NCBI GenBank assembly: GCA_963823995.1
Contig: CAWGNQ010000006.1
Location: forward strand, 503,685 to 567,684
Reading direction: 5' to 3'
Origin: an uncultured Acidobacteriota bacterium
GTDB taxonomy: Bacteria > Acidobacteriota > UBA6911 > RPQK01 > JAPXNP01
DNA length: 64,000 bases
Shown: positions 15,199 to 40,507 of the stretch, in pieces
How the letters are laid out: each line of letters opens with the position of its first letter
Position numbering within the stretch: the first letter of the stretch is position 1
Position numbers and translations under genes: made by a program
Notes under the pieces: generated by a model
What the model was told of the DNA's origin: nothing
The model's database searches: none
What the model saw: the letters and a program-made list of their open reading frames with translations, nothing else

Positions 15199-15227
15199 TT
15201 GACATATTTATGATTCCTCTATATGCT
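15199..15227 (+). promoter_or_regulatory. Sigma70-type promoter: TTGACA, 17-nt spacer, TATGCT; predicts a leaderless vapB transcript starting near ATG 15235
   Basis: TTGACA at 15199-15204, a 17-nt AT-rich spacer, then TATGCT at 15222-15227. It sits in a short low-GC island just upstream of vapBC. Confidence 0.55.
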
Positions 15228-15234
15228 TTTATGC

Positions 15235-15480
15235 ATGAGGACCACCATTGACATCGATGACGATCTCCTTCGTGAGGTGAAGCGCTACGCGGTGGAGAAC
15301 GACCGGACGATGCGCGCGGTCATCGAGGAGGCGCTCCGTTCCGATCTGGTCAGGAGGAAACGGCGCCGGGATGCGCTCGAGGTCGACGAAGTGATCACGT
15401 TCAAAGGACGTGGTACGAAACCAGGCGTCGATCTGGACAGTACAGCGGACTTGCTCGATCTGATGGAGTCGGGTCGGTGA
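15235..15480 (+). CDS. vapB: Type II antitoxin, ribbon-helix-helix VapB family
   Basis: MRTTIDIDDDLLREVKRYAVENDRTMRAVIEEALRS is a classic VapB/RHH N-terminus. Its stop overlaps the vapC GTG start (GTGA overlap). Confidence 0.8.
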   Translation: MRTTIDIDDDLLREVKRYAVENDRTMRAVIEEALRSDLVRRKRRRDALEVDEVITFKGRGTKPGVDLDSTADLLDLMESGR

Positions 15481-15905
15481 CTCTCGTCGACGTGAATGTG
15501 CTCATCTACGCCCACCGCGAAGAGAGCCCTCGGCATCAGGAGTACCGGGATTGGCTCCGGTCATTGTGGGCCGGACCCACCGATTTCGGGGTTTCGGAGC
15601 TGGTGCTCAGCTCGTGCCTGCGGGTTTTGACTCATCCCAAAGTCTTCGATCCCCCAACCCCCCTCGATCGCGCTCTGTCCTACGTGAATCAGGTGCGATC
15701 ACAGCCGAACTGCATTGTCATTACTCCCGGCAACCGGCACTGGGACATCTTCTGTGAACTGTGCGCCAATGCCGAGGTCAAGGGCAATCTCGTCGCCGAC
15801 GCCTACCTGGCCGCGCTGGCCATCGAATCGGGCTGTGAATGGCTGACGACCGATCGGGACTTCGCCCGATTTTCCGGTCTGCGTTGGAGACACCCGCTGG
15901 CTTGA
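15477..15905 (+). CDS. vapC: Type II toxin, PIN-domain ribonuclease VapC
   Basis: 142 aa; MTLVDVNVLIYA...LVADAYLAALAIESGCEWLTTDRDFARF. The PIN-domain acidic residues are present (D5, E?, D99, D118-like). Confidence 0.8.
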   Translation: MTLVDVNVLIYAHREESPRHQEYRDWLRSLWAGPTDFGVSELVLSSCLRVLTHPKVFDPPTPLDRALSYVNQVRSQPNCIVITPGNRHWDIFCELCANAEVKGNLVADAYLAALAIESGCEWLTTDRDFARFSGLRWRHPLA

Positions 15906-17745: not shown

Positions 17746-20076
17746 TCAGGAGAGCGGGGCGCTGAGAGATGCGGTGCTGACTTCCGTGCCGGCGCAGGGA
17801 AACAGGATCGAGAACGTCGTTCCTCGGCCCGGTGCGCTCTCCACCTGAATGGAGCCGTTGTGCTGTCGGACGATGCCGTAGACGGTCGACAAGCCCAGAC
17901 CCGCGCCCCTGCCAAAGGCTTCGGTGGTGAAGAACGGGTCGAAGATCCGTGAGACCGTGTCTGGATCCATTCCCCGGCCGGAATCGGACACCCGAACTTC
18001 GACGTATGTGCCCGGGTCCAGCTCCGAAATCGTCTTGGAGTCGGATGCGTCCAGGCGGCGATTCCGCACGGAGAGGCGGAGTTGCCCACCGTTCGGCATC
18101 GCATTTCGCGCATTGGAGACGAAATTCTCGAGTACCCGCTCGATCAACTGGGTGTCGGCCAGGACCGGAGCGATACCGACGCCGTATTCATACTCCTGCC
18201 GGATTCCCTCACCCGCCAGGCGGGACAGGTTCGGTTGTAGGGCCGAGACGAACTCGGAGAGATCCACCCGGCGGAGATCGAGCAGCAGCTTTCGGCTGAA
18301 GGCGAGCAGTTTCTCGACCAGCCTGGCCGCCCGCAGCCCGGCCATCCGAATCTCCTCGAGATCCTCCTGGATTCCGGCTCCGCTGCGATCCGCCGCGAGC
18401 GCAAGCTCGGTCCGACCATTGATGATCATCAGGAGGTTGTTGAAATCATGGGCAACCCCGCCGGCAAGGTTGCCGACGGCCTCCATCTTCTGCGAGTGCC
18501 GAAGTTGGCTCTCGAGCCGCCTTCGTTCCTCGATGTCTCGAATAACGAGAAGACCCCGCTCTTCTCCGCCGACCGATGATCTCTGGGCCAGCATCTCCGC
18601 CCAGAAACTCGATCCGTCGCAGCGGCGCACGTGGAGTTCGTGCAGGGACGGCGCCGGACTGTGGAGGGCCGTCTCGACCCGCTCGGACCCCTCCTGGACC
18701 AGATCGCAGATGCCCTTCGTCACCAGACCTTCGCAGGAGCATCCCAGAAGCCGGGCCGCCGCCTCGTTGCTCTGGACGATGCGTCCCGTTTCGCCTTCGA
18801 CCAGCAGGATCCCTTCGTCGACGGCATTGAAAATCTCCCTGTAGATCGCTTCCGATCGCAGCAGTCTCTCTTCCGCCCGGACGCGCCGCTCGGCCAGTGA
18901 CAGCGCTTCGCGCGAGAGCAGGACGATCACGAAGGTGCCGGCCAGTACGAAGAGCCCGAGGGCGAGATCCGGATAATTCGGGCGGTCTCCCAGGAGGTAG
19001 CCTCCCAAGCCGAGCACAGGCAGGGAGAAGAGCATCAGATTATCGCGAAACTGCAAGACGGGCAGATAGCCGACGAAGGTGATGGCGATCCAGGCCAGAG
19101 GGCTGAGATCGACTCCGAACAACCAGCCGAAGAACAAAACCGCCGCAAAGCGCAGGCGCGCCACACGCCACTGACCCAGCCGCCTGGATGCGAACTCGTC
19201 CGCCAGGACCAGACCGCAAAGGACGAGGTAGAAGATCAGCACTCTGTCGTCGATCCAGCCCGAGTGAGCCACCAGATCACACAGAAAGGACAGCGAGATC
19301 AACGAGAAACCGGCTTGCCTGAGGACCGACCCGCGGATCAGTTCGGACTCTCGGTTCGGCGGCCCGGGAGCCGACATTCGAATCAGCAGAAACAGACCGG
19401 TGGCGAAAAGCACAGCCAGGACCCCCAGGGAACCTGCGTTGTAACCGTCCCACTCGAACCGAAACTCGCGAATGTCCAATTTGAATCCGTCGGAGGGAGG
19501 GAAGGTGAAGGCCACACTCCGAACCAGGGATGTTTGCAGGACTCCGTCCTGGAGGTCCGGATCGAGATTCGGATCTTCGGACGGTTCGAGATGGTCCAGA
19601 GGGAACTCGGTGCGGGTCCACCCCTGATCGGGGCCGCGAAGCGGGCCGTTGAAGATCTCCCCGTACTCGACATCATGCCGGTGGGTTCGTTCCCGAAGCG
19701 TGACTACGAACTCGGGGATCGTTCCATGGCCGCGCCAATCCAGCGTCAGGCGGGCGCCGAAACGGGGGGCGCCGGACAATTCCGTGACACCGAAGCCGAG
19801 GTACTGGTCCGACCTGGGAATCCCGACCTCCAGGAAGCGCTCGCCCGTTGCCGGCGTCTCCCGGAAGGTCAACGAAGAGTCCTGGAGCAGGTAGAGATAG
19901 ATCGGATACTGCTCGGTGAAGGCACCCAACACGTAACTGCCGGGGTCGATGATCGCCGCCGATCCGCCGGGGGGAAAGAAGAGGATCAGGACGATGATCG
20001 TCACCAGAGGCAGCAGCGCGAAGACTGCAACAACGGTGCGCAGGAGTCCGTTCATGCTCGACAATGCTTGAGACAT
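17746..20076 (-). CDS. Sensor histidine kinase with N-terminal 7TMR-DISM-type extracellular and 7TM module, PAS, HisKA and HATPase domains; no cognate response regulator in the window
   Basis: 776 aa; signal peptide plus a ~200 aa periplasmic domain, then 7 hydrophobic helices, a PAS region (EGILLVEGETGRIVQSNEAAARLLG), the H-box HSQKMEAVGNLAGGVAHDFNN and the ATPase boxes NARNAMPNGG / SGRGM / GLGL. Confidence 0.8.
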   Translation of the reverse strand: MSQALSSMNGLLRTVVAVFALLPLVTIIVLILFFPPGGSAAIIDPGSYVLGAFTEQYPIYLYLLQDSSLTFRETPATGERFLEVGIPRSDQYLGFGVTELSGAPRFGARLTLDWRGHGTIPEFVVTLRERTHRHDVEYGEIFNGPLRGPDQGWTRTEFPLDHLEPSEDPNLDPDLQDGVLQTSLVRSVAFTFPPSDGFKLDIREFRFEWDGYNAGSLGVLAVLFATGLFLLIRMSAPGPPNRESELIRGSVLRQAGFSLISLSFLCDLVAHSGWIDDRVLIFYLVLCGLVLADEFASRRLGQWRVARLRFAAVLFFGWLFGVDLSPLAWIAITFVGYLPVLQFRDNLMLFSLPVLGLGGYLLGDRPNYPDLALGLFVLAGTFVIVLLSREALSLAERRVRAEERLLRSEAIYREIFNAVDEGILLVEGETGRIVQSNEAAARLLGCSCEGLVTKGICDLVQEGSERVETALHSPAPSLHELHVRRCDGSSFWAEMLAQRSSVGGEERGLLVIRDIEERRRLESQLRHSQKMEAVGNLAGGVAHDFNNLLMIINGRTELALAADRSGAGIQEDLEEIRMAGLRAARLVEKLLAFSRKLLLDLRRVDLSEFVSALQPNLSRLAGEGIRQEYEYGVGIAPVLADTQLIERVLENFVSNARNAMPNGGQLRLSVRNRRLDASDSKTISELDPGTYVEVRVSDSGRGMDPDTVSRIFDPFFTTEAFGRGAGLGLSTVYGIVRQHNGSIQVESAPGRGTTFSILFPCAGTEVSTASLSAPLS

Positions 20077-20165
20077 AGTTCGGCCGTGTCTGCCGTTCGA
20101 TCTTAAGATCGGTTCCTCCGGGAAAGACCATTAGGGTTCTGAGACTGGTTGAAGAGGAGTGCTCC

Positions 20166-21443
20166 TCAGCTCTGGAAGAGGACGAGAGTGTTCGGAGGAA
20201 TCTGGGCGTCATTGATCTCGTCGCCGCTGAGGATCGTCCCGTCGGGCAGGCGATAGAAGGTCGATGGATAGTTCCACTTGCGTCCGGCAATTCGGGAGGG
20301 CAGCCGGTTTCGCTTGACGTGCCCGCCGTAGACGTACCCGACCAGAACTCGGGTTCCGGCAGGCAGCGACTCGAGCAGGCGCCGGGTCGAGCGCCTTCGA
20401 TACAGGTCGTGACCGGTTCTCACCATGCCGCTGGGAAGCAGGTAGATGGTGGTGTTACTGTCGAACGCCTCCCCCGCGATTTCATGTCCGCTCTCTCCCA
20501 GTTTTGCTTCGACGAAACCTTCGAAACTCGACTCGTCTTCCTGAGAGACCAAGACAGCGGTGCCCACGGGTATCTGACCCCAGTCCGTAATCTGGTCGCC
20601 GGACTGACGGGTCCCGTTCGGGAAGATGTAGACCGTGTGAGCGCTGTCGTACTGGTCGCGCGCAATGTACCAGGCGGTGCGTCGGGCCGTGATGACATTC
20701 TCGTCGCTGCCGGCGGGCGTGCCGGCAGCCGCGACCCTGGAGGGAGCTGCCGATGCGACTCCTTCACGGAAATGGTAGAGGTAGTGTTGCAGCTCCACAT
20801 CAGCCACCTTGACCCTCCCGGCACGGACATCCGGATCGGATGAGGGACTCGCCGTCAATCCGAGTCTCTGGCGGACATCGGGCCGCGCGAAGATCATGCC
20901 GCATCGTTTCCGGCCACGGTGGTTGAAGGGATAGAAGCGGTTGGGGCGACCGTAGGCAACCATCGAGTGGGTAAGGACGTTCTTGTCCGGAATTTTGTAC
21001 AGGCTTTGCAGTTGTCGGAGAAGCTCCCGGACAGCCCGATACTGTGCGTCAGTGATGTCCTGGTCGTGGTACCCGACGATTTCGATCCCGATCGAGTAGT
21101 TGTCGATCGGGCCGTGACCCTCCCACATGCTCCTGCCTGCATGGGTCGCAATTTTCGACTTGTCGACGACCCGGTACACGCGTCCTTTCTTGGTCACGAA
21201 GTAGTGGGTTTCACCGCGACGCCAGACCTTCCGAAGCGAACCGGTCTCTCCGCCCTCCGTCGTGTGCAGGATGATGTACCTGGTGTGAGGACGTTTCGGA
21301 CGGACGCGGTTTCTGGGACTGAAGTGGTTGCGGATGTCCAGACTGGCGGCGAAGATCTGCGTTCCGGAGATGGCGGCCAGTCCGATCGCCGTACACCAGG
21401 CATGTCGAATGACATCTCTGCGCGAAACTTTCCCTGAATCCAT
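20166..21443 (-). CDS. Secreted amidase_2/PGRP-domain peptidoglycan amidase (N-acetylmuramoyl-L-alanine amidase-like) with a C-terminal repeat domain
   Basis: Amidase_2 core YIILHTTEGG...HYFVTKKGRVYRVV...ATHAG...NYSIGIEIVGYH...AQYRAVRELLRQL. N-terminal signal with an RR motif. The C-terminal ~200 aa hold paired YxxPxGTxxSGD repeats. Confidence 0.7.
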   Translation of the reverse strand: MDSGKVSRRDVIRHAWCTAIGLAAISGTQIFAASLDIRNHFSPRNRVRPKRPHTRYIILHTTEGGETGSLRKVWRRGETHYFVTKKGRVYRVVDKSKIATHAGRSMWEGHGPIDNYSIGIEIVGYHDQDITDAQYRAVRELLRQLQSLYKIPDKNVLTHSMVAYGRPNRFYPFNHRGRKRCGMIFARPDVRQRLGLTASPSSDPDVRAGRVKVADVELQHYLYHFREGVASAAPSRVAAAGTPAGSDENVITARRTAWYIARDQYDSAHTVYIFPNGTRQSGDQITDWGQIPVGTAVLVSQEDESSFEGFVEAKLGESGHEIAGEAFDSNTTIYLLPSGMVRTGHDLYRRRSTRRLLESLPAGTRVLVGYVYGGHVKRNRLPSRIAGRKWNYPSTFYRLPDGTILSGDEINDAQIPPNTLVLFQS

Positions 21444-21561
21444 GTTCGACTGTCATTCGAGGGGTGAGAGAATCAGGTCGTTCGCCCAGCATCCATGCGT
21501 CCCCTGCTACCTCGCTCTCGGACCCCCAACTTCGATATCTGGGCGGGACAGCGCTAGAACC

Positions 21562-22290
21562 CTACCACACTACGGTGCTGTTTCGCGGACCCAGCCGGAA
21601 GTAGAGCTGCCCCTGGAACGGAGTTCTATGCAGCGCTCCGGTGTCGTAGTCGACGATCTTTCGATCGAGAATGCGGAGTCCCGCCGCGTCAATCGTCCGG
21701 GCGATTTCAGCCGGGCTGAACAGGTAACCCCGACCGTGAAGCTTGCGGCTGCCGAAGACCAGGTCGAACTCTCTCGCACCGTTCTCGCTTCGGAAATGGA
21801 CGATGTCGTCGAGAAGGTTGCGGAACAGGGTTGTCCAGCCGTAGGCGCGGGCATTGTAACGATTGTGGACATCCATGTGCAGCGAGCCCCCCGGGGCCAG
21901 GAGGGAGGCCATCGTGCGGAGCGCCGCGACCCGCGCATCGAAGCCTCGAATGTGCCCGAGTACGTTCCACAGACAGGTCATGTTGTCGAAAGTCTGATCG
22001 GGAGGATGAAACTCCTCAATGGGGATGATATGGACACAGGAACATGATTTGCGGCAAAGGGACGCCATGGCCGGGCTCGGTTCGACCATCACCAGGCGCT
22101 CAATCCCGGCTCGGAGCACCAGCCGTTGTGCCCGGACCCCGTCTCCGGCGCCCACGTCGAGCAAGCTGTTTCCGGTCAGCCAGGGGGCGACGAGTCGATC
22201 GATGCTCGCCAGATACGCCGCGCGCCGTCCGGCGTATTCCCGAAAAAAGGGTGCGAGATCGTCATAGAACGCATCGGTTGAGCTCGTCAT
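21562..22290 (-). CDS. Class I SAM-dependent methyltransferase
   Basis: LLDVGAGDGVRAQRL (motif I) and MVEPSPAM (motif II). Divergent from the epimerase/aminotransferase/KamA gene run. Confidence 0.7.
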   Translation of the reverse strand: MTSSTDAFYDDLAPFFREYAGRRAAYLASIDRLVAPWLTGNSLLDVGAGDGVRAQRLVLRAGIERLVMVEPSPAMASLCRKSCSCVHIIPIEEFHPPDQTFDNMTCLWNVLGHIRGFDARVAALRTMASLLAPGGSLHMDVHNRYNARAYGWTTLFRNLLDDIVHFRSENGAREFDLVFGSRKLHGRGYLFSPAEIARTIDAAGLRILDRKIVDYDTGALHRTPFQGQLYFRLGPRNSTVVW

Positions 22291-22407
22291 TCTCCGCGCT
22301 CACGTTAACACAGGGACCAGGAGGCCGGGATTGCCTGCGCACGGGGGGCACCTCGGGCTGCACCCGGTTCGCAGTGGTCGTGCCAACCCGGTTATACTGC
22401 GTGGGAT

Positions 22408-23607
22408 ATGACCGGCAGCTTGCGTCGAATCGCATTCGTCACTACCTCGAGGGCCGACTACGGTCACCTCTACTGGCCCATGAAGGAGGTGCTGCAAGCT
22501 CCGCAGTTGGATCTGTCCCTGATCGTTCTCGGATCGCACCTGTCGCCCGAGTTCGGGCGAACCGTCGGAGAAATCGAACGAGACGGATTTCCGATCACCG
22601 ATCGCATCGAATGTCTGCTCAGTAGCGACAGTGACGTCGGGATGGCCAAGACCATCGGTTTGGCGACACTGAGTCTGGCCGAGGCGTTGGATCGACATCG
22701 ACCCGATCTGCTCGTCCTCATAGCCGACCGGTACGAAATGCTGGCCCCGGCATCGACCGCTCTGGCTCTCCGCATCCCCATCGTACATATCGAGGGTGGG
22801 GAAGTGAGCGAGGGAGCGATCGACGAAGCGGTCCGCAATGCCCTCACCAAATTGAGTCATATTCACTTGACGCCGACCGAAAGCTCGCGACGACGGGTTC
22901 TGGCGATGGGCGAGGAGTCTTGGCGGGTGCACCGGGTCGGCGCTCCTTCCCTCGATCACCTTTATCGGCGTCCGATTCCCGGACGGGAGGAGGTTGAGCG
23001 GGAACTCGGTGTCGATCTCGACATGCCGACGATCCTGGTTCTCTATCACCCTGTGACTCTGGCGCGGGACACTACGTTCGAGGCAGACTCGCTCTACGAG
23101 ATTCTGGCCGGGCTCGAACAGCAGATCCTGTTCTGTTTCCCCAATTCCGACGCCGGTAGTCGCGCACTGATCGAGCGGTCGCGAGTTTTTTGCCGGCATC
23201 ATCCAAAGGCCCGCCTGTTCGTAAATCTGGCACATTTGAAGTACTGGGCGCTGCTGCGACACGTCAGCCTCCTGGTCGGAAACTCGAGCAGCGGCATCAT
23301 GGAAACACCCTCGCTGTCCCTGCCGACGGTCAATGTAGGGATTCGGCAGCGTGGGCGGGAACGAGCCCGCAACGTCATCGACGTGGAATCGGAGCCCGAT
23401 GCGATTCGCAAAGGCATCCTGGAGGCGCTGCGACCTGAATTCCGCGCCTCGCTGGAGGGCCTGGTCAACCCCTATGGAGACGGGCATGCCTCCGAACGAA
23501 TCGTGCGGATCCTGAAAGAGGTCGAACTGGGGGACCGTCTCCTCATCAAGCCCGCGGTTCCGCTGATGCCTTCAGCCGAACCTGTTGCGGCCGTGCAGGA
23601 CCCATGA
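22408..23607 (+). CDS. UDP-N-acetylglucosamine 2-epimerase (hydrolysing), NeuC/LegG-like
   Basis: IAFVTTSRADYGHLYWPMKEVL, HLSPEFGRTVGEIERDGF, HIEGGEVSEGAIDEAVRNALTKLSHIHL and NSSSGIMETPSLSLPTVNVGIRQRGRE match the hydrolysing-epimerase family. Confidence 0.75.
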   Translation: MTGSLRRIAFVTTSRADYGHLYWPMKEVLQAPQLDLSLIVLGSHLSPEFGRTVGEIERDGFPITDRIECLLSSDSDVGMAKTIGLATLSLAEALDRHRPDLLVLIADRYEMLAPASTALALRIPIVHIEGGEVSEGAIDEAVRNALTKLSHIHLTPTESSRRRVLAMGEESWRVHRVGAPSLDHLYRRPIPGREEVERELGVDLDMPTILVLYHPVTLARDTTFEADSLYEILAGLEQQILFCFPNSDAGSRALIERSRVFCRHHPKARLFVNLAHLKYWALLRHVSLLVGNSSSGIMETPSLSLPTVNVGIRQRGRERARNVIDVESEPDAIRKGILEALRPEFRASLEGLVNPYGDGHASERIVRILKEVELGDRLLIKPAVPLMPSAEPVAAVQDP

Positions 23608-24755
23608 CGAAGGTTCCCCTTTCGTCACCCGATATTGGGCGCGAAGAGATCGAGGCGGTCGTCGACGTACTCGGCAGTGCGAGACTGAGCTGGGGTCCGC
23701 GGCTGAAGCAATTCGAAACAGAGTTCGCGCGATTTGTGGGACAGGAGTTTGCTGTTGGAGTCTCCAGCGGAACGGCCGCTCTGCACCTGAGTCTGCTGGC
23801 AGCCGGCGTCGGGGCAGGTGATCTGGTCGTAACCACTCCACTTTCCTTCATCAGCTCCGCCAACGCGGCATTGTACGTGGGTGCACGGCCCGTCTTTGTC
23901 GACGTCGAATCGAGGACAGGGAACCTCGATCCGAATCGGGTCTCCGATTGCGTTCGCAACCTACGCAGCGGCGGTCTGCCTGTTCGAGCCATTCTGCCCG
24001 TACATCTCTTTGGTCATCCCGCTGCAATGAACCCGCTTCTCGAAATTGCCCGGGAGAACGATCTGCTCGTCATCGAGGACGCATGTGAAGCATTGGGTTC
24101 CGAATATCGGGGGCGACAGGTCGGCAGCTTCGGGCATGCATCCGCCTTTGGGTTCTATCCGAACAAGCAGTTGACAACCGGCGAGGGAGGCATCGTCGTC
24201 ACCTCGGATCCAAAATGGGCCGACCTGTTCGAGTCTCTGCGAAACCAGGGGCGGGGCACCGGCTCGTCCGAGGCTGTGGCGGTCCGCCTCGGCTACAACT
24301 ACCGGCTGAATGAGCTGAGCGCCGCGCTCGGACTGGTCCAGTTGCGGCGATTCGACGATCTGCAACGGAAGCGCGCACGGGTCGTCGAATGGTACAGGCA
24401 GCGTCTCGAGGGCATCCATGGCATCGGACTTCCGGAGGTCCTGCCGGAAGCGACTCGAATGTCCTGGTTTCTCTTCCGTGTGATTCTGAGTGGTCCCGAG
24501 GAACGCGCGAGAGTCGAAGGCGCCTTGGCAGAGCGTGGCATTCCATCCCGCGGATACTTCACGCCGATTCACCTGCAGCCTTACTATCGGGAGCATTTCG
24601 GATTTCAGTCGGGCATGTTTCCAATCGCGGAACGTCTGGGAGGTTCTTCCCTGGCGCTTCCCTTTTCCAGCGTCATGACCGAGCAGCAGGTCGACATGGT
24701 CTGCCACGAACTCCGCCAGGTGTTCGAATCGCAGCGCCTGCATGCCGGTCATTGA
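23604..24755 (+). CDS. DegT/DnrJ/EryC1/StrS-family PLP-dependent sugar aminotransferase
   Basis: FAVGVSSGTAALHLSL, VIEDACEALGSEYRGRQVGSFG and SFYPNKQLTTGEGGIVVT (the PLP-lysine region). Overlaps the epimerase by 4 nt (ATGA). Confidence 0.8.
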   Translation: MTKVPLSSPDIGREEIEAVVDVLGSARLSWGPRLKQFETEFARFVGQEFAVGVSSGTAALHLSLLAAGVGAGDLVVTTPLSFISSANAALYVGARPVFVDVESRTGNLDPNRVSDCVRNLRSGGLPVRAILPVHLFGHPAAMNPLLEIARENDLLVIEDACEALGSEYRGRQVGSFGHASAFGFYPNKQLTTGEGGIVVTSDPKWADLFESLRNQGRGTGSSEAVAVRLGYNYRLNELSAALGLVQLRRFDDLQRKRARVVEWYRQRLEGIHGIGLPEVLPEATRMSWFLFRVILSGPEERARVEGALAERGIPSRGYFTPIHLQPYYREHFGFQSGMFPIAERLGGSSLALPFSSVMTEQQVDMVCHELRQVFESQRLHAGH

Positions 24756-24959
24756 CGACACCGCCGGGAAGCTGACCATGACGGCCATGACGGGACCGAT
24801 TGCGTCGCGCTGGTCGTCCCGTCGTGGCGAAAAAGCCTGTGTCAATCCGGTGATGAGAAATCCGCAAAATTCTCTGTTACTTGTCGCCCTGTTCGTGCAT
24901 CATATCAAGCGGCCGTTCGTTCCGCGCGGACATGATGATACGAATGGAGTAGCTTCAAA

Positions 24960-26360
24960 ATGAGACACGTTCGAATGACCGAAAGGAGGAGCGCTACCGC
25001 GCCGTCGATGCCGGCTCGCGAAAGCGAAGCCGAGCTCGACCATCCTCCGCCCCTTCCGACCGCTACGGTGTCCGCACGCTCCGCGCCGACACCATCGGAT
25101 TCTTCTCCTTTTCCCGCAAGACAACCGTTTCCGCAGGCTCAGTGGGCCGACTGGCGCTGGCAGTTGCGTCATCGCATCCGGTCGGTCGAACAGCTCCTGG
25201 AGTATTTTCCCGGAGTCCAGGAAACGGACGCCTTGAGGCAGGCCTCGGACCGATTCCCTCTGGCCGTTACGCCCTACTATGCCTCACTCATCCGCAGCGT
25301 CGGGGTCGACGACCCGGTCTACCAGATGGCGGTGCCCCAAGTCGGAGAGCTCTTCGACGGACCGTTTCTCACCGAAGACCCACTGTCCGAGGATGAAGAC
25401 ATGCCGGTCCCCGGTCTGGTCCATCGCTACCCGGACCGAGCACTTCTGATTGCGACGTCCGCGTGTGCGGTCTACTGTCGTCACTGTACGCGTAAACGGG
25501 TCACGGGCCACCGGGAAACCATGATCAGCCGCACCGATCTGGACCTCGTCATCGGGTATCTGCGGCAGCACCCGGAAATTCGGGATGTCATCGTCTCGGG
25601 CGGAGATCCGCTGACTCTGGCTACCGAGGTACTGGAAGAGATCCTCGCCGCCCTGCGTGCCGTGCCGTCCGTGGAGATCATCCGGATCGGCACCCGAACT
25701 CCGGTGACACTGCCCATGCGCATCACCGATGAGCTCGTCGAGATGCTGCGGCGCTACCACCCGGTCTTCGTCAATGCGCACTTCAATCATCCGGTGGAAC
25801 TGACGGCCGACTCAACCGAGGCCTGCCTCAGACTCGCGGACGCAGGCATTCCCCTCGGCAATCAGTCGGTCCTGCTGCGGGGGGTCAATGATTCCCCACT
25901 GGTCCTCGAGACGCTCTTCCGGTCTTTGTTGCGCATTCGAGTGCGTCCGTACTATCTGTTTCAGTGTGACCTCGTGAGAGGAGTCGAGCATTTCCGTACG
26001 CCCATTTCGAGGGGATTGGAGATCATGGAGTACCTGCGGGGCCGGTTGAGCGGTCTGGCAATTCCGACCTTTGTCGTCGATGCTCCACACGGCGGTGGAA
26101 AGATCCCCCTGCTGCCGACCTATATTCTCTCCATGAGCCCGACCCACACGGTACTGCGCAACTTCGAGGGGCTGATCGTCTCCTATCCGGAACCGGCCGC
26201 CGCGGAGCTCCAGCTTCCCGGTTCGGCCCGCGACGGGACGCGGGGGGGAGTCTGGGAGGTTGCCACAGGAAGGCGGTCCCACCTGCAGCCGGAACAGATG
26301 GAGCGGCAGGAGCGACGGTCCGCGAATGGGCGATCTCGTCGGACAGGTGAACCTCGATGA
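24960..26360 (+). CDS. KamA-family radical-SAM 2,3-aminomutase (lysine 2,3-aminomutase-like) with a Pro/Ser-rich N-terminal extension
   Basis: Radical-SAM CAVYCRHCTRKR (CxxxCxxC), VIVSGGDPL, and the KamA core WQLRHRIRSVEQL...LLRGVNDSP...YYLFQCDLVRGVEHFRT. The substrate (lysine, glutamate or arginine) cannot be read from the sequence by eye. Confidence 0.8.
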   Translation: MRHVRMTERRSATAPSMPARESEAELDHPPPLPTATVSARSAPTPSDSSPFPARQPFPQAQWADWRWQLRHRIRSVEQLLEYFPGVQETDALRQASDRFPLAVTPYYASLIRSVGVDDPVYQMAVPQVGELFDGPFLTEDPLSEDEDMPVPGLVHRYPDRALLIATSACAVYCRHCTRKRVTGHRETMISRTDLDLVIGYLRQHPEIRDVIVSGGDPLTLATEVLEEILAALRAVPSVEIIRIGTRTPVTLPMRITDELVEMLRRYHPVFVNAHFNHPVELTADSTEACLRLADAGIPLGNQSVLLRGVNDSPLVLETLFRSLLRIRVRPYYLFQCDLVRGVEHFRTPISRGLEIMEYLRGRLSGLAIPTFVVDAPHGGGKIPLLPTYILSMSPTHTVLRNFEGLIVSYPEPAAAELQLPGSARDGTRGGVWEVATGRRSHLQPEQMERQERRSANGRSRRTGEPR

Positions 26361-28099
26361 TTCGGATTCGCCGGGTCTACAGCACAGCGCTCTCCGTCGA
26401 TCGACAGCGCCTCGATCAAGTTCGGCAGATCTTCCGGGCGAACTTTCCTTCGGTGGCCGGATATGCCGACACGCTGGCCCACAAGCTCGATCATCCGTTC
26501 AAATACGGCTATCGTACCTTCCTGCTGGTCAGTGAATCGTCGCTCGCCAAGGTCACCGGATTCTCGCTTTTGCTTCATTTGCCGGAGGTCAACAGCACGG
26601 TCCTCGACTTCATCGCGGTCGGTCGAACGATTCGAGGCGGTGGCGTCGGCACTGCCCTCTACGAGTCCACGCAAAGTTACCTGAAATCCATCGGTTCACG
26701 AGGTCTCTACATGGAGGTGCTCCCGGATGATCCCGCGGTCGTCAAGGATCGCCGCGAACTGAGGGAGAATCGGCGTCGACTCGCTTTCTACGAAGCCCAC
26801 GGTGTTTTTCCGGTCATCGGAACCGAATATGAAACGCCCATCGACGAGTCGCCCGCACCCTATCTGCTGTTCGATCCCCTCGGCCGTAAGGGGCCTCTCC
26901 GCCGATCCGAGGCGCGGAACGTCGTACGCCTTCTGCTGGAGCGCAAGTACTCACACGTGGTTCCACCGGCCTATATCGAGCGGGTCGTCGAGTCCTTCAC
27001 GGATGATCCGGTGCGCATGCGGGAGCCGCGCTATGGCGGCGAGAAGCCCGGCCAGGCAATTCCGCGGGTTTCCGGGAGCGAGTTGCTGGCGCGCCCTTTC
27101 ATCCTGGTTTACGATGATCGGCACCGCGTCCACCATGTCCGTGAGCGGGGCTATGTCGAACGCCCGGCGCGCGTCAAGGCGCTGGTCGAGTCACTGCGGC
27201 CGACCGAGCTCTTCAATGTCGAGGCGCCCCGGAATCACGGCGAGAGTGCGATCCGGAGGGTCCATGACGGTGGTTTCGTCTCATATCTGAAGGCCGTCTG
27301 CCGGACCCTGGAGCAGGCGAAGCCGGTCTATCCGTACGTCTTCCCGATCCGACGCCCCGACCGTAAACCCCGGGAGCTGGCCATCCGTGCGGGCTATTAC
27401 TGCATCGATACGTTTACTCCGCTCGACCGGAATGCCTATGAAGCCGCCCGGGCCTCGGTCAATGTGGCCCTGTCCGCCATGGAAAAGCTGATTCGGGACG
27501 GGTCCGGACTCGCCTATGCTTTGTGCCGGCCACCCGGTCACCATGCCGAGCGCAAGGCATTCGGAGGTTTCTGCTATTTCAACAACGCGGCGATTGCCGC
27601 CAGTGAGCTGAGCCGTTTGGGGCCGGTCGCGCTGCTCGACCTCGATTTTCACCACGGAAACGGAACGCAGGACATCTTCTATCGACGATCGGACGTCTTG
27701 ACCGTTTCGGTTCATGGACATCCGAATTACGCCTATCCCTATTTCTCCGGCTTCGGCGATGAGACGGGCGAAGGGGAGGGGAAGGGCTTCAACTTCAATT
27801 TTCCTCTGCCGGAGGAGTCCGGACCCGAGCGTTACTTCGAAACGCTGCAGAAAGCTCTCAAACAGGTTCATCAGTTCAAGCCTCGTTTCCTCGTTGTTTC
27901 GCTCGGCTTCGACACGATGACGGGAGATCCCACCGGGGCCTTTCTGCTGACGGCGGCCTCCCTCCGGGAAATCGGTCGTCGATTGGGGCGCCTGAACCAC
28001 CCGACCCTCGTCGTGCAGGAGGGTGGCTACAACCTGCGTAACCTTCGCCGGGGTGCTGTTGCGTTCTTTTCGGGTTTTGGAGAGGCATTGTGGACCTGA
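26357..28099 (+). CDS. Fusion protein: N-terminal GNAT acetyltransferase plus C-terminal class-II HDAC-like / acetylpolyamine amidohydrolase deacetylase
   Basis: N-terminal GNAT motif A DFIAVGRTIRGGGVGTALYE. C-terminal HDAC signatures CRPPGHHAERKAFGGFCYFNNAAIAA and LDLDFHHGNGTQDIF with the downstream GFDTMTGDP. Overlaps the kamA-like gene by 4 nt. Confidence 0.75.
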   Translation: MIRIRRVYSTALSVDRQRLDQVRQIFRANFPSVAGYADTLAHKLDHPFKYGYRTFLLVSESSLAKVTGFSLLLHLPEVNSTVLDFIAVGRTIRGGGVGTALYESTQSYLKSIGSRGLYMEVLPDDPAVVKDRRELRENRRRLAFYEAHGVFPVIGTEYETPIDESPAPYLLFDPLGRKGPLRRSEARNVVRLLLERKYSHVVPPAYIERVVESFTDDPVRMREPRYGGEKPGQAIPRVSGSELLARPFILVYDDRHRVHHVRERGYVERPARVKALVESLRPTELFNVEAPRNHGESAIRRVHDGGFVSYLKAVCRTLEQAKPVYPYVFPIRRPDRKPRELAIRAGYYCIDTFTPLDRNAYEAARASVNVALSAMEKLIRDGSGLAYALCRPPGHHAERKAFGGFCYFNNAAIAASELSRLGPVALLDLDFHHGNGTQDIFYRRSDVLTVSVHGHPNYAYPYFSGFGDETGEGEGKGFNFNFPLPEESGPERYFETLQKALKQVHQFKPRFLVVSLGFDTMTGDPTGAFLLTAASLREIGRRLGRLNHPTLVVQEGGYNLRNLRRGAVAFFSGFGEALWT

Positions 28100-28174
28100 T
28101 GGATTCCGGGCGGTGAACTGCCTGTTCCGATACCGAATCGATCGGCGGCCGCTTTACCAGGGGGCGATAGGGCA

Positions 28175-29164
28175 ATGAAGACAGGTCTGGTCTACGATCT
28201 ACGCGATGACTATCTGGCCGAAGGCTGGACGGCCGAAGAGGCGGCTGAGTTCGATTCCGTGTCGACGATCGACGCACTCGTGGAGGCATTGGGCACTCTG
28301 GGGCACGATGTCGAGCGGATCGGGCATGCTCGGCGCCTTTGTGCCCGAATCGTCGAGGGTGCTCGATGGGATCTCGTCTTCAATATCGCGGAGGGCGTGA
28401 AGGGGAGAAGTCGCGAGGCTCAGGTTCCGGCCCTGCTCGAACTGTTCGACATTCCCTATACTTTTTCCGATCCGCTGGTCTGTGCGGCAACCCTCGACAA
28501 AGCCGTTGCGAAGCGGCTGGTCCGTGATGCCGGTCTGCGGACGCCTGATTTCGTTGTTCTCCGCAACCCTGCGGAGATTGCGTCGGTCGACCTGGTTTTT
28601 CCGCTCTTCGTCAAGCCTCTTGCGGAAGGAACGGGGAAGTGGATCGACTCGACTTCAAGGGTCGAGGATCACGAGGGTCTGCAGAGCGTCTGCATGAGTC
28701 TCCTGGCCCGCTCCGGCCAGCCCGTTTTGGTCGAGGAGTACCTCCCGGGTCGGGAGTTTACGACGGGGATCGTCGGTACCGGCTCCCGGGCACAGATCGT
28801 TGGCAGCATGGAGATCACCATCCGCCAGAGCGCCGGAACGGCCGATTATTCCTACACAGTCAAGCAGGAGTGGCGGGAGTTGTGCGACTATCCCGTCCTG
28901 GAGCCGGGAGGGCTGAAGGACGAGGTCGAGAGACTCGCACTGGATTCCTACCTCGCCCTCGAGTGCCGGGACTTGGCCCGGGTGGACCTGCGGCTGGATC
29001 GCGACGGACGCCCCTCCTTCGTCGAGATCAATCCGCTGCCGGGCTTGAATCCCGTCTATTCCGATTTGCCGATTCTCTCGCGCCTGAACGGATGGGAGTA
29101 CGTTGACATCATTCGGGCGGTCGTGGACAGTGCCCTGGAACGGCATGAAGGAGGTGGGCGATGA
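28175..29164 (+). CDS. ATP-grasp ligase, D-alanine-D-alanine ligase (Ddl)-like
   Basis: FPLFVKPLAEGTGKWI, VLVEEYLPGREFTTGIVG and RVDLRLDRDGRPSFVEINPLPGL are ATP-grasp motifs of Ddl-type amino-acid ligases. 329 aa. Confidence 0.7.
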   Translation: MKTGLVYDLRDDYLAEGWTAEEAAEFDSVSTIDALVEALGTLGHDVERIGHARRLCARIVEGARWDLVFNIAEGVKGRSREAQVPALLELFDIPYTFSDPLVCAATLDKAVAKRLVRDAGLRTPDFVVLRNPAEIASVDLVFPLFVKPLAEGTGKWIDSTSRVEDHEGLQSVCMSLLARSGQPVLVEEYLPGREFTTGIVGTGSRAQIVGSMEITIRQSAGTADYSYTVKQEWRELCDYPVLEPGGLKDEVERLALDSYLALECRDLARVDLRLDRDGRPSFVEINPLPGLNPVYSDLPILSRLNGWEYVDIIRAVVDSALERHEGGGR

Positions 29165-30699
29165 AGCCGGCTGAGGTCCTGATTCTCCACAACCTGCCGG
29201 CGGAGCAACCAGCTGTGGGCCTGGAGCGATTTCCGGAATCGGATGAGGGGGTTCTCCGTGAGGCAGCTGCGGTCGCAGACGCCCTTGTGCGGCTCGACGT
29301 CGGATTTCGCAGGGCCGGCGTTCGCACCTTCGAAGACGTGGTCAGTGCCGTCTCGGGAGGGAGAGAATGGCTGGTCGTGAACCTCGTCGAGAGTCTGGGG
29401 GCTGATGCCGCCGACGCCTGCTACGTCCCGATGGTGTGTCGTGCTTTGGGGCGGCAGTTCACCGGAAGTGACAGCCGTTGTCTTGCGATGACCCTGGACA
29501 AGAATCTGGCGAAGTGCGTCTTGCGGTCGCAGGGTGTGCGGACGCCGCAATGGCTTTTCGTGCCTCGCGGCAGTGACGTCGTGACGCACCCGGATCTCGT
29601 TTTTCCGGTCATCGTCAAGCCGGTCGCCGCGGATGCCAGCGAAGGCATCGACCCGGCTTCTGTCGTGAGGCAGCCGGGCATGGAACTGGTGTCGGCCATC
29701 CGGAGGATCCACGAGCGGATGGGACAGGACGCCCTGATCGAGGAGTTTGTGGCGGGCAGAGAATTCAATATTTCGCTTCTTCAGCGAGGCACCGCTCTCG
29801 AAGTCCTGCCGCCGGCGGAGATCGAGTTCGTCGACTTTCCGGCGGGAAAGCCTCGTATTGTGGACTATGCGGCCAAATGGCTTCCCGCCACCTTCGAGTA
29901 CCGGAACACGGTTCGAAAGGTCCCTGCCGAAGTGGACGGACCTCTGGCAAGCGAGATCCGATCGATCGCCCTGGCCGCTTGGGCCGCGGCCGGATGCGGA
30001 GACTATGCGCGGGTGGATCTGAGACTCGACGGCCAGGGAGTGCCGTTTGTCCTTGAAGTGAATGCGAACCCCGATATTTCCCCGGATGGCGGTTTTTCGG
30101 CGGCTCTCGAGGCCGCCGGTGTGACGTTTGCGGACTTTGTGGCGAGTCTCCACGAGAATGCTTCGGCCCGAAGGCGTCCCCTGCAGCTACCGACTCGACG
30201 GATCACGGTCGATGACCGTCTTCGGATTCGCAGGACCGAGGCCGGTGACCGGGACGGGATCGTCAGCCTTCTTTCGGCGACGGGCTTTTTCAAACCGGAC
30301 GAGCTCACGGTCGCAGCTGAAGTGCTTGACGGGACCGTTGCACCGGACAGCACGCATTATCAGTCCTACACGTGCGAGCAGGACGGTTTTCCGGTCGGGT
30401 GGGTCTGCTGGGGCCCCACACCCTGCACGCAGGGAACGTTCGATCTCTACTGGCTGGCAGTCTCGCCGCTCGAGCAGGGGAGGGGCATCGGGAGGCTTCT
30501 GATGCAGTTTGCCGAGGAAAGCATCCGGGACCAGGGTGGGAGGATCATCGTGGTCGAGACCGCCGGCCGCTCGGAGTACGCACCGACGCGGGCGTTCTAT
30601 ACGAGAATCGGCTACTGGGAGCAGGCAAGACTGGTCGACTTCTATGCTCCCGGTGACGACAAGGTCCTTTTCACGAAGCAGTTTCCGCTCGGTGTCTGA
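29161..30699 (+). CDS. Fusion protein: Ddl-like ATP-grasp ligase plus C-terminal GNAT acetyltransferase
   Basis: ATP-grasp: FPVIVKPVAADASEGI, LIEEFVAGREFNISLL and RVDLRLDGQGVPFVLEVNANPDIS. The C-terminal ~170 aa form a GNAT (LAVSPLEQGRGIGRLLMQFA). Overlaps the previous gene by 4 nt. Confidence 0.75.
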   Translation: MKPAEVLILHNLPAEQPAVGLERFPESDEGVLREAAAVADALVRLDVGFRRAGVRTFEDVVSAVSGGREWLVVNLVESLGADAADACYVPMVCRALGRQFTGSDSRCLAMTLDKNLAKCVLRSQGVRTPQWLFVPRGSDVVTHPDLVFPVIVKPVAADASEGIDPASVVRQPGMELVSAIRRIHERMGQDALIEEFVAGREFNISLLQRGTALEVLPPAEIEFVDFPAGKPRIVDYAAKWLPATFEYRNTVRKVPAEVDGPLASEIRSIALAAWAAAGCGDYARVDLRLDGQGVPFVLEVNANPDISPDGGFSAALEAAGVTFADFVASLHENASARRRPLQLPTRRITVDDRLRIRRTEAGDRDGIVSLLSATGFFKPDELTVAAEVLDGTVAPDSTHYQSYTCEQDGFPVGWVCWGPTPCTQGTFDLYWLAVSPLEQGRGIGRLLMQFAEESIRDQGGRIIVVETAGRSEYAPTRAFYTRIGYWEQARLVDFYAPGDDKVLFTKQFPLGV

Positions 30700-30945
30700 C
30701 CGCTCCAGCAGGTACGACTCGATCTCGTCCCAGTAGCCCTGGTCGACGCGGACCTGCTTACAGGACGAGCAGATGGACATCAGACCTCGCTCGATCGGCG
30801 CCCATAGACGAAAAAAGGGCGCCGCGATTGTGCTGCAAGCAGCAGTATTCGCGGCGCCCTGGACGAAGCCGTTACCTGGAATGCCGGACGGCGGGTTGCG
30901 CCGTCCGGTCATGGCGGCGAACATCCTCCGTGATCAATTCGAAGA

Positions 30946-31293
30946 TCAGCGCGAGGCGTGGGCCGCCTGTTGAATGGGCATACCCGCTTCCCGCCAGGCC
31001 TTCATCCCGCCTTCATAGCGGTCGACATGCTCGTAACCTTCCGACTCCAGTTTCTTGGCGGCGGTTTCGGAGGCCGTACAGTCGGACCCGGCACAGTAGA
31101 CGACGATTCGGTGCTCCTTATTCTCCGCTCGTCTGCCGACTTCTCTCAGGAAATCTTCGCGTTCGAGCGGAATGTTCAGTGAGCCCGGAATATGTCCCTC
31201 ATCAAAACTATCCTCGCCCAGCACGTTGATCAAAAGGAAGTCCTCTTTGCGCTTTCTCATATCTTTCAATTCGTCAGTTGACAGCTTTCTCAT
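30946..31293 (-). CDS. Single-domain rhodanese-like sulfurtransferase
   Basis: 115 aa; FLLINVLGEDSFDEGHIPGSLNIP...IVVYCAGSDCTAS (rhodanese active-site loop with Cys). GGAAGGAAAGG Shine-Dalgarno 5 nt upstream of the ATG. Confidence 0.7.
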   Translation of the reverse strand: MRKLSTDELKDMRKRKEDFLLINVLGEDSFDEGHIPGSLNIPLEREDFLREVGRRAENKEHRIVVYCAGSDCTASETAAKKLESEGYEHVDRYEGGMKAWREAGMPIQQAAHASR

Positions 31294-31600
31294 AATGACC
31301 TTTCCTTCCTGATCCTCTGTGACGATAAGTCACATTGGATCATATATTTAAATGATCATATATCTATGTTTCCGAAAATTCGTTGCGAGCACTGTAAAGT
31401 GCCATTTACATAGTCATACAACCAACAAATTAATTATATCAATGGATAGGTCGCATTTCAAAGATGGCTTTGCTGACGTCGAGTCACAGTCACACCACAG
31501 CTCATATAGCATCACAGCCGTGATGATCGGAGGCACCCCGCTCTGTCGCGGGCCGGGTTCGGCGACGCGACACCGCTTCACTGAGGTACTTCTCGCGCTA
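31294..31600. other. AT-rich ~300-bp non-coding spacer between the encapsulin and rhodanese genes, carrying the direct repeats GATCATATAT (31339-31348 and 31354-31363)
   Basis: GC content is strikingly lower than the surroundings. There is no convincing ORF (the listed 107-aa and 77-aa ORFs have no support). A 7-bp inverted repeat TGTCGCG...CGCGACA lies at ~31539-31567, just 3-prime of the encapsulin stop. Confidence 0.5.
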
Positions 31601-32404
31601 TTGCGTCTTCCACTGAATGGGAATGACGGCTGTGCCGTCGAGGACACGAAACGTGAATGTCTCGGTGAAGTATAGCTGGACCTTCCTGGTGTCGTGGTGG
31701 TGGTAGCCGATGGCCAAGTCCTGCCCCAAGGTCAGCTTCATGTCCCCGCCGCGCAAGGAGACGAGCACGGTCTCCTGGAGGAACGGACTGAGGATGATCG
31801 GATTCCCGAGCAGCCGTTCGAGGTGCGTCTTCAGCGGGTAGCACTGGTTGTGTTCGCTGATGCCCTGCCAGAGCTTCGAACCGGCGACCAGAACGTAAGG
31901 CCCATCCACGCCGTTCCGAGCGAATTTGGTGATCCCCACTGCTACGGCCTCGAGCAGGTTTGCGGGATCACCGGAAAAGCTGAGTTCGTCGTACTTGCTG
32001 CACTCGCGCAGACCTTTGATCCCACCGGCGGAAAAACCGTGGTAGATCGCCTGTTCTTCGAACATCGCGATCTTGCGGGCGGCATCTTCCAGGGGGAGGA
32101 GATCGATCGCCTCGTCGCCCCGGGAGGCATTGTCCAGCTCCCAGACATCCAGTTCGAAAAGAATACGAGACTCGATGAGGGGACGAACGGCTCGGATTCC
32201 AAATCCGACTTCTCCCATCGAGGCCTCGTCGGCGTTTGTAAGGCGGCCCAGGGGAACGGCCGAGTAGTCCCATCCGTGGGGACCTGCCACATCGACGATC
32301 CGACGTCCGGACAGGGATGCCCGCAGGACCTCCTGTGCTCGGTGGTCGATGGACTTCCAAGCGGCTTCGGTGATGGGTGCGAGTTCTCTTCTCAAGATGT
32401 TCAT
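31598..32404 (-). CDS. Family 1 encapsulin nanocompartment shell protein (linocin M18-like, HK97 fold)
   Basis: MNILRRELAPITEAAWKSIDHRAQEVLRASLSGRRIVDVAGPHGWDYSAVPLGRL...ILFELDVWELDN...GPYVLVAGSKLW...GQDLAIGY...QLYFTETFTFRV aligns along its whole length with T. maritima-type encapsulins. AAGGAG Shine-Dalgarno 6 nt upstream. Confidence 0.9.
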   Translation of the reverse strand: MNILRRELAPITEAAWKSIDHRAQEVLRASLSGRRIVDVAGPHGWDYSAVPLGRLTNADEASMGEVGFGIRAVRPLIESRILFELDVWELDNASRGDEAIDLLPLEDAARKIAMFEEQAIYHGFSAGGIKGLRECSKYDELSFSGDPANLLEAVAVGITKFARNGVDGPYVLVAGSKLWQGISEHNQCYPLKTHLERLLGNPIILSPFLQETVLVSLRGGDMKLTLGQDLAIGYHHHDTRKVQLYFTETFTFRVLDGTAVIPIQWKTQ

Positions 32405-32439
32405 CGTCGACTCCTTTGACTCTGTACCCGGAGGCGGGG

Positions 32440-32799
32440 CTATTCGTTCAGTTCCCTGAGACCACCGATGCTCAGCCCCTCTCCCGGAGATCCTCCTTCA
32501 GCTGAATCCGAGTCCTCTCCGATCGAGGTGATGTCTCCCTCGGTAAACAGGTAGGTGTGCATTCGTGCGTCCCAGCCCGGCATGTTGCGTCGCAACCATT
32601 CGAGCGTCATGCAGGCATGTTCCATTTCCTCGTCTCGATTGTGGGCGAGGATGGCCTTCAGCTCCTCGTTGTCGGACGATGCGATACGCTGCTGGTACCA
32701 GTCTACAGCTTCGACTTCCTCGATCAGACTGCGCAGGGCCCGTACGTAATCGCGGTCCTGCTCAGACATTTGCTCCGGCGGCTCGTGGTAATCGGTCAT
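32440..32799 (-). CDS. Encapsulated ferritin-like cargo protein (EncFtn/Flp) with C-terminal encapsulin targeting peptide
   Basis: The start is set at the internal ATG 32799 (GGGAGG Shine-Dalgarno 5 nt upstream). EEVEAVDWYQQRIASSDNEELKAILAHNRDEEMEHACMTLEWLRR is nearly identical in pattern to characterised EncFtn proteins. The C-terminal EGLSIGGLRE matches the GSLxIGSL cargo-loading motif. Confidence 0.85.
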   Translation of the reverse strand: MTDYHEPPEQMSEQDRDYVRALRSLIEEVEAVDWYQQRIASSDNEELKAILAHNRDEEMEHACMTLEWLRRNMPGWDARMHTYLFTEGDITSIGEDSDSAEGGSPGEGLSIGGLRELNE

Positions 32800-33070
32800 C
32801 TGAACCTCCCGTCGGTTTGTTGGATTTTCAATCGGCGGCGGTGTGAGCCCAACGACTCTCGAATCGAGCCCTGCTGGCAAGCGGAAAAAGTTGTCTACAA
32901 ATGACTTACATGGTGCCGCCGCTTTCAGTATACAGAGCTGCGGAGGAAACCGACAAGCGATGGGGACGAATACCGGAGAGCGCCACCCCGACTTGCCAAC
33001 TCCGGCCCGGGCCGGTCGCCAAGGGCTGAGGAGTTCCTGGAAAGGAGACCGGAGCCTGGAAACGGGAAAA

Positions 33071-35517: not shown

Positions 35518-35614
35518 TGCGCCCGAGTCTAACAGTCCTCGTCGCGAAATCGCCAGCGAAAGCGGGTCGGGAGCGGAGGGAGCCGTGAGTTCCCGGCGCT
35601 GCTTCCGATCTTCG

Positions 35615-37312: not shown

Positions 37313-37332
37313 GGACGTCGACCCTCAGAGGA

Positions 37333-40506: not shown

Positions 40507-40507
40507 A

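Follow-up and report, generated by a model that had tools for sequence, protein, structure and literature searches.

A 64,000-nt stretch of DNA from an uncultured Acidobacteriota bacterium (contig CAWGNQ010000006.1; the window in the following) harbors at positions 24960 to 30699 of its forward strand four genes encoding a KamA-type lysine 2,3-aminomutase, a fusion of a GNAT acetyltransferase and an HDAC-type deacetylase, and two Ddl-like ATP-grasp ligases (Ddl1 and Ddl2), the second of which is fused to a further GNAT. The four genes probably form a self-contained cassette, separate from the NeuC-DegT gene pair upstream, and their products would synthesize a small N-acetylated amide containing beta-lysine. 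The probability of this reading, taking the delimitation of the cassette and the proposed pathway together, is estimated at roughly 0.55. An earlier reading of the sequence (the original prediction) had combined these genes with NeuC and DegT in one operon for a small-molecule pathway that it could not match to any described one. The novelty holds for the set of KamA, the two non-canonical ligases, GNAT and GNAT-HDAC, which is conserved in more than 10 phyla and apparently undescribed in the literature and in NCBIfam.

Relatives of the ligase-GNAT fusion are encoded in at least 596 species-level genomes, of which the best 80 loci were kept; a wider comparison took in 86 related loci. The loci were fetched with an alignment of 23 homologues of the fusion, and the window proteins were run by tblastn against all loci, followed by assignments per open reading frame. 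In 63 of the 80 loci, KamA adjoins both ligases; several of the others are incomplete on the relevant side. This adjacency, spread over more than 10 phyla, exceeds chance. The core cassette recurring as a set consists of KamA, Ddl1, Ddl2 and GNAT and is found in Acidobacteriota, Planctomycetota (Phycisphaerae, Sedimentisphaerales, Pirellulales), Verrucomicrobiota/Kiritimatiellia/Lentisphaerae, Chloroflexota/Dehalococcoidia, Bacteroidota/Ignavibacteria, Gemmatimonadota, Myxococcota, Eisenbacteria, Alpha- and Gammaproteobacteria, Spirochaetota and Sumerlaeota. The usual order in most lineages is KamA-Ddl1-Ddl2-GNAT; in Bacteroidota and Gemmatimonadota it is Ddl1-Ddl2-GNAT-KamA, and in Spirochaetaceae the order is shuffled as well, so that the gene set is kept despite rearrangement. 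The cassette is broadly distributed, largely single-copy and located in core-genome settings, near genes such as those for RecJ, PyrD, RF-1, L31 and IlvD.

In at least 18 loci, kamA is immediately preceded by a TetR-family gene. Among 75 co-directional neighbours checked for further recurrent operon members, only TetR and a split GNAT recur; no transporter, resistance, non-ribosomal peptide synthetase (NRPS) or precursor-peptide gene was found repeatedly among them. In loci without KamA, no alternative supply enzyme was found, with the exception of a variant in Thermodesulfobacteriota described below. In a Lentisphaerae locus (L024, 8187–9680, minus strand), the ligase-GNAT fusion is encoded alone, without KamA or Ddl1, and divergently from a class-III (omega-amine) aminotransferase, an enzyme class also present in the kamA operon of Bacillus subtilis.

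The nearest relatives of the window locus (L003 and L004, both labelled Acidobacteriota, 66–85% amino acid identity) are the only loci in which NeuC, DegT and the adjacent methyltransferase accompany the cassette. Since unrelated flanking genes for an amidase, a rhodanese and an encapsulin are collinear with the window there as well, this linkage is regarded as background synteny rather than a functional one. A third Acidobacteriota locus (L028) carries the cassette without NeuC, DegT and the methyltransferase, and NeuC and DegT were not found beside it in any other phylum among the related loci compared. Synteny past the closest relatives is thus limited to the last four genes, KamA to Ddl2-GNAT, and does not extend to NeuC and DegT, so that the lack of synteny named in the original prediction as a refuting outcome applies to two of its six genes. 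Together with a 204-nt gap containing a hairpin after the DegT gene, this leaves the assignment of all six genes to one operon unsupported.

The hairpin is formed by a 13-bp inverted repeat directly 3' of the DegT stop codon (24784–24828, plus strand) and lacks a T-run; it likely separates the NeuC-DegT unit from the cassette, for which it is suggestive only. Equally suggestive is a weak promoter-like motif (TTGTCG-N16-TATCAA, 24880–24907, plus strand) read by eye 52 nt 5' of the kamA start codon, which is preceded by a GGAG at 24946–24949 (plus strand), likewise read by eye. A scan for consensus promoters and terminators returned nothing beyond shuffle expectation and did not call this motif, and no riboswitch or other RNA element was found by an Rfam scan of positions 20000 to 32500. 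Hairpins follow the last cassette gene, and a terminator hairpin with a T-run lies at 30816–30860. The gaps of 204 nt (DegT-KamA) and 75 nt given in the original prediction are correct; the six genes have five junctions rather than six, and three rather than four of them are 4-nt overlaps (23604–23607, 26357–26360 and 29161–29164).

Proteins of the cassette

The aminomutase (24960–26360, plus strand, 466 amino acids) contains the Radical_SAM and LAM_C domains and aligns over 393 residues with the lysine 2,3-aminomutase of Clostridium subterminale (PDB 2A5H, 4.5e-136). It belongs to the KamA family, scoring 316 bits with the subfamily model TIGR00238 (cut-off 199). The best-scoring model is AblA (TIGR03820) with 506 bits, 19 bits short of the cut-off of 525. 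The CxxxCxxC motif, the carboxylate-binding R134, the pyridoxal phosphate-binding K337, and D293 and D330 (2A5H numbering) are kept in the window protein, and C125, C129, C132, R134, D293, D330 and K337 show no variation across the 64 cassette KamA sequences. The two aspartates bind the epsilon-ammonium group of lysine; glutamate 2,3-aminomutase has lysine and asparagine at these positions. Because the lysine-binding and catalytic residues are kept, it can be concluded with some firmness that KamA of the cassette converts L-lysine to beta-lysine. The original prediction had left beta-lysine, beta-glutamate and beta-arginine as possible products and had named the specificity residues as the point to compare: the window protein and all 64 orthologues have aspartate at both of them, which leaves lysine and rules out the other two. 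The scores with the glutamate (433 bits, cut-off 650) and arginine (356 bits, cut-off 600) aminomutase models are also far below the cut-offs. An EpmB-type modifier of elongation factor P (EF-P), considered earlier as an alternative, is excluded by a score of 248 bits with TIGR03821 (cut-off 369) and by the LAM_C domain, which is characteristic of the long form of the enzyme.

Ddl1 (28175–29164, plus strand, 329 amino acids) and the Ddl2-GNAT fusion (29161–30699, plus strand, 512 amino acids) are both members of the Ddl-like ATP-grasp enzymes, with Dala_Dala_lig_C (PF07478) above its cut-off for each of them (3.3e-24 for Ddl1). The two ligases are paralogues with 32% identity, and their nearest solved relatives in a sequence search of the PDB are Ddl enzymes. 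The Ddl2 part of the fusion comprises residues 1 to about 340; the AlphaFold2 model (pLDDT 88.7) has a Ddl fold and DdlA and DdlB as best Foldseek matches (TM-score of about 0.8, normalised to the target). As expected in the original prediction, neither ligase is an ordinary Ddl or cell-wall enzyme: they score 143 and 106 bits at a curated cut-off of 243, both lie far below all curated Ddl cut-offs, and the D-alanine pocket (H63, S150, Y216, S281, L282) is not conserved. Residues are numbered here on Escherichia coli DdlB, with the numbering checked at E15 only. The residues for ATP, magnesium and transition-state binding (K97, K144, E180, E187, K215, R255, D257, E270 and N272) are invariant in both ligase families. 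H63 is replaced by an invariant glutamate in both. E15 is kept as glutamate or aspartate in Ddl1 and lost in Ddl2, Y216 is E, Q, W or R in Ddl1 and W in Ddl2, G276 is kept in Ddl1 and D in Ddl2, and S281-L282 is changed in Ddl1 and A/G-G in Ddl2. The pocket signature of Ddl2 (E63, A150, W216, D276, D280, G282) is essentially invariant across lineages, and the Ddl1 pocket occurs in three lineage-specific types. Since both pockets gained acidic residues, cationic substrates are suggested, for example beta-lysine or another di- or polyamine.

At E ≤ 1e-30, the ligase-GNAT family falls into 1288 clusters of 50% identity. Ddl2 and GNAT are fused in the Planctomycetota-Verrucomicrobiota-Chlamydiota (PVC) phyla and in Acidobacteriota and split elsewhere. 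Tandem proteins of Ddl1 and Ddl2 occur naturally as well. Twelve proteins of 640–730 amino acids contain two ATP-grasp stretches (P0457, P0459, P0461, P0474, P0476, P0486, P0490 to P0492, P0497, P0506 and P0507); in the four that were checked with Pfam (P0457, P0461, P0491 and P0497), two Ddl-type domains were found. The N-terminal half of P0461 is 52% identical to Ddl1 of the window and its C-terminal half is of the Ddl2 type. Because both ligase 1-ligase 2 and ligase 2-GNAT fusions exist in nature, the three activities of the KamA cassette are likely to work together.

Assignment to the GNAT acetyltransferases is supported by the GNAT fold and the Q/RxxGxG/A acetyl-CoA motif. The GNAT domain of the ligase fusion (residues 355 to 512, approximately) matches an uncharacterised GNAT of Desulfovibrio (PDB 2R7H, 7e-33). 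The GNAT-HDAC fusion (26357–28099, plus strand, 580 amino acids) consists of a divergent GNAT (residues ~1–215; weak Pfam match, 8.4e-5) and an APAH-type HDAC domain (residues ~267–575; Hist_deacetyl, 3.8e-75). In the latter, the tandem histidines, the Asp-His-Asp zinc ligands and the catalytic tyrosine of the GGY motif are kept, and the nearest relatives are the polyamine deacetylases APAH and HDAC10. A profile of the N-terminal domain gave marginal GNAT matches only when searched against the PDB; its second-best structural match is again 2R7H. The match common to both GNATs suggests that the fusion may acetylate and deacetylate the same kind of amine as is handled by the cassette GNAT. GNAT-HDAC is an accessory gene that about a dozen of the 80 loci carry, always within the cassette; all three independently chosen homologues (Spirochaetaceae, Sumerlaeota, Planctomycetaceae) are encoded in cassettes, too.

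In Thermodesulfobacteriota/Deltaproteobacteria, the trio of Ddl1, Ddl2 and GNAT is encoded without an adjacent KamA (L050, 3968–10760; L083 to L085, approximately 6400–10650), flanked by RecJ/SLT and PyrK/PyrD genes. It is directly preceded by a pyruvoyl-dependent arginine decarboxylase, with or without an agmatinase and a deoxyhypusine-synthase-like gene, and followed by a UbiE-like methyltransferase and a second GNAT. The Ddl1 pocket of this lineage is of the same type as that of the KamA-linked cassettes of Bacteroidota and Gemmatimonadota. This operon might be the equivalent of the beta-lysine cassette for agmatine or polyamines. Taken together with the APAH/HDAC10-like deacetylase, this single-lineage variant is the best available clue, short of proof, that the ligases might use di- or polyamine-like substrates.

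Candidate pathway and competing explanations

In the proposed pathway, L-lysine would be converted by KamA to (3S)-beta-lysine, after which Ddl1 and Ddl2 would each form one amide bond in an ATP-dependent reaction via an acyl-phosphate. The GNAT fused to ligase 2 would then N-acetylate an amino group of the product, and the GNAT-APAH fusion, where present, could deacetylate and re-acetylate a terminal aliphatic amine as a reversible switch of charge or activity. In many other lineages, the operon would be controlled by the TetR repressor. The product is predicted to be a small N-acetylated di- or tri-amide with beta-lysine that stays in the cytoplasm and is polyamine-like or a compatible solute. 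The ligation, acetylation and deacetylation steps are predictions, as are the nature of the second and third building blocks and the role of the compound in the cell. A cytoplasmic primary metabolite is favoured over an antibiotic because of the core-genome setting and the lack of recurrent export or resistance genes.

Several points weigh against this pathway. The product and the ligase substrates are predicted from sequence, the polyamine link depends on one lineage and on domain similarity, and all carriers seen are metagenome-assembled genomes. As the Thermodesulfobacteriota variant has no adjacent KamA, the ligases may not depend on beta-lysine, and with three lineage types of the Ddl1 pocket the product may not be uniform. 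TetR and the core-genome placement fit the modification of a macromolecule as well as they fit a metabolite.

Such a modification is the strongest of the competing explanations and is nevertheless considered unlikely. The ligases would post-translationally couple beta-lysine, and with it a second residue, to a protein, e.g. a translation factor or a ribosomal protein. Acetylation would follow, and ATP-grasp enzymes would here take the place of EpmA/EpmB or RimK. Beta-lysine is known from the modification of EF-P, some homologues have faint Pfam matches to TTL and RimK, and EF-G or LepA genes are located near the cassette in a few loci. Furthermore, the deoxyhypusine-synthase-like gene, agmatinase and arginine decarboxylase beside the Thermodesulfobacteriota ligases correspond to the set used for hypusination of initiation factor 5A in some archaea. 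On the other hand, efp was not found by tblastn in the window or in 88 related loci (1.48 Mb), KamA is of the long type with LAM_C and not EpmB, and the nearest structural relatives of the ligases are small-molecule Ddl enzymes. The APAH-type deacetylase and TetR also suit small-molecule metabolism better.

Still less probable is a polymer or envelope component, either a cyanophycin-like oligo- or poly-beta-lysine or an unusual dipeptide of the peptidoglycan stem or cross-bridge. The Ddl lineage makes a cell-wall dipeptide, the presence of two ligases is reminiscent of two-site polymer synthetases, and genes for a muramoyl-alanine amidase and an SLT protein are located near the window cassette and the Thermodesulfobacteriota variant, respectively. 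Both of these neighbours are lineage-specific, however, and genes for a Mur ligase, a flippase or export are not found repeatedly beside the cassette. The D-alanine-binding residues are lost in the ligases, and a polyamine-type deacetylase is hard to fit into a wall pathway.

That the cassette is a plain ablAB-like system for the osmolyte N-epsilon-acetyl-beta-lysine, with the ligases as functionally unrelated neighbours, is very improbable. The top score of KamA with the AblA model and the presence of GNAT domains would fit. The ligases, however, accompany KamA more constantly than any other gene and occur in fusions with GNAT and with each other, neither GNAT domain matches an AblB-type model at E ≤ 1, and according to the record titles the carriers are largely from non-saline soil, groundwater and digesters. 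With the score of KamA below the AblA cut-off, the view of the original prediction that ablAB is not a match is supported. Equally improbable is its proposal of a peptidyl-aminosugar, mycothiol-like or other aminosugar-linked beta-amino-acid conjugate built by all six genes and the methyltransferase: the six genes follow one another on one strand in the window, an arrangement shared by L003 and L004, but the proposal was rejected on the synteny across phyla and the gap with hairpin described above, and neither a glycosyltransferase nor an enzyme that uses nucleotidyl sugars is part of the cassette.

A wider version of the favoured beta-lysine amide pathway is possible but doubtful. In this version, an acetylated cationic beta-lysine oligo-amide would be a widespread primary metabolite serving as polyamine surrogate or partner, charge-switched by GNAT-APAH and sensed by TetR, with a Thermodesulfobacteriota analogue based on agmatine or putrescine.

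Other genes of the window

All seven open reading frames of the original prediction are present at the positions it gave, and its domain calls were confirmed by Pfam and NCBIfam for every gene. Upstream of the cassette, a class-I methyltransferase (21562–22290, minus strand) is transcribed divergently from a hydrolysing UDP-GlcNAc 2-epimerase (NeuC, 22408–23607, plus strand; Pfam Epimerase_2; 424 bits with the NCBIfam equivalog NeuC_NnaA, cut-off 236) and a DegT-family aminotransferase (23604–24755, plus strand; Pfam DegT, 3.7e-111). The latter scores below the cut-offs of PseC (294 bits, cut-off 423) and LegC (264 bits, cut-off 420). A 4,6-dehydratase, a NeuB-type synthase or a CMP-transferase was not called between about 6 and 41 kb of the window (approximately 16 kb upstream and 10 kb downstream), and the full enzyme set for legionaminic, pseudaminic or sialic acid is not encoded around the two genes. 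The NeuC/LegG-type epimerase and the PseC/LegC-like aminotransferase (22408–24755, plus strand) thus appear as an orphan pair with a 4-nt overlap, kept only in L003 and L004.

Convergent with the cassette, genes for a rhodanese, a family-1 encapsulin (Linocin_M18, 6.9e-83) and an EncFtn-like cargo protein are located in a row (30946–32800, minus strand), syntenic in L003 and L004. Polysaccharide-degradation genes are found at 33115–40700 and 6800–8700, encoding a GH5 cellulase with CBM6/CBM35, GH2, GH127 and an alpha-L-fucosidase with an F5/8 type C domain; the same stretches encode a C39-like peptidase with a TPR protein. A sulfatase/SGSH_C open reading frame (14118–15092, plus strand), for which the public gene call has 217 amino acids, matches the C-terminal part of the sulfatase profile only and might be a truncated gene. 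It is directly followed by a VapB-PIN toxin-antitoxin pair (15223–15905, plus strand). For an open reading frame of 1599 amino acids (47335–52134, minus strand), an identical gene product is not on record in the assembly collection.

Relation to known systems and implications

A description of the KamA/ligase/GNAT cassette was not found in the literature searched; an earlier comparative-genomics prediction is possible. The ligases, the GNATs and the HDAC fusion are not covered by any naming NCBIfam equivalog and bear the generic database names 'D-alanine-D-alanine ligase', 'GNAT family N-acetyltransferase' and 'histone deacetylase family protein'. Among known systems, ablAB and kamA-yodP-yodQ of B. 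subtilis likewise combine a lysine 2,3-aminomutase with a GNAT, in B. subtilis also with a deacetylase. The cassette differs from both by two obligatory, fused ATP-grasp ligases and TetR, by a deacetylase of the HDAC/APAH type instead of the M20 type, and by GNATs without an AblB-type match. In the synthesis of N-acetylglutaminylglutamine amide (NAGGN) by Ngg and AsnO, a GNAT and an ATP-grasp ligase are also part of one protein and an N-acetylated, dipeptide-type cytoplasmic solute is formed without NRPS. In Ngg, the GNAT is N-terminal and the ATP-grasp domain C-terminal, whereas the order is reversed in the cassette fusion, the ATP-grasp domain of which is of the Ddl lineage and is accompanied by a second ligase and the aminomutase. 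An amidotransferase does not recur among the neighbours, and a model scan of NCBIfam gave Ddl-type or generic GNAT hits throughout and no Ngg-type model.

The pyrrolysine pathway (PylB-PylC-PylD) also starts with a radical-SAM lysine mutase followed by a Ddl-like ATP-grasp ligase (PylC) that joins the product to another amine. Unlike PylB, which is a carbon-skeleton mutase, KamA is a pyridoxal phosphate-dependent 2,3-aminomutase; the cassette lacks PylD, adds an acetyltransferase and a deacetylase, and has ligases for which PylC structures are not among the PDB sequence hits. With the acetylpolyamine cycle (a SpeG/SSAT-type GNAT and APAH/HDAC10), the cassette shares an HDAC domain closest to APAH/HDAC10, here fused to GNAT, which implies that a terminal aliphatic amine is N-acetylated reversibly. 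This fusion is specific to the beta-lysine/ATP-grasp cassette, however, and its substrate is probably no classical polyamine. Leupeptin, compared with the cassette by description only, is made by discrete ligases and an acetyltransferase and carries an N-acetyl cap. Negamycin is derived from beta-lysine, with an ATP-grasp enzyme encoded in its gene cluster (bioRxiv 10.1101/2025.05.27.656397). Both are assembled independently of NRPS by stand-alone ligases, as is proposed for the cassette, which contains no reductase, hydroxylase, N-N-forming enzyme, export or resistance gene. In contrast to these narrow secondary-metabolite clusters, it is broadly distributed, largely single-copy and placed in a core-genome context.

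Few fates are known for bacterial beta-lysine, namely lysine fermentation, the osmolyte acetyl-beta-lysine, the modification of EF-P and a small number of antibiotics. If the proposed pathway is true, the cassette adds a further, NRPS-independent fate. It would also give functions to two large families annotated as 'D-alanine--D-alanine ligase', which are certainly mis-named. The carriers belong to poorly studied and environmentally dominant phyla, namely Acidobacteriota, Planctomycetota, Verrucomicrobiota, Chloroflexota, Gemmatimonadota and Bacteroidota. With NeuC and DegT removed as a source of confusion, a compact unit of four genes is left that is directly testable.

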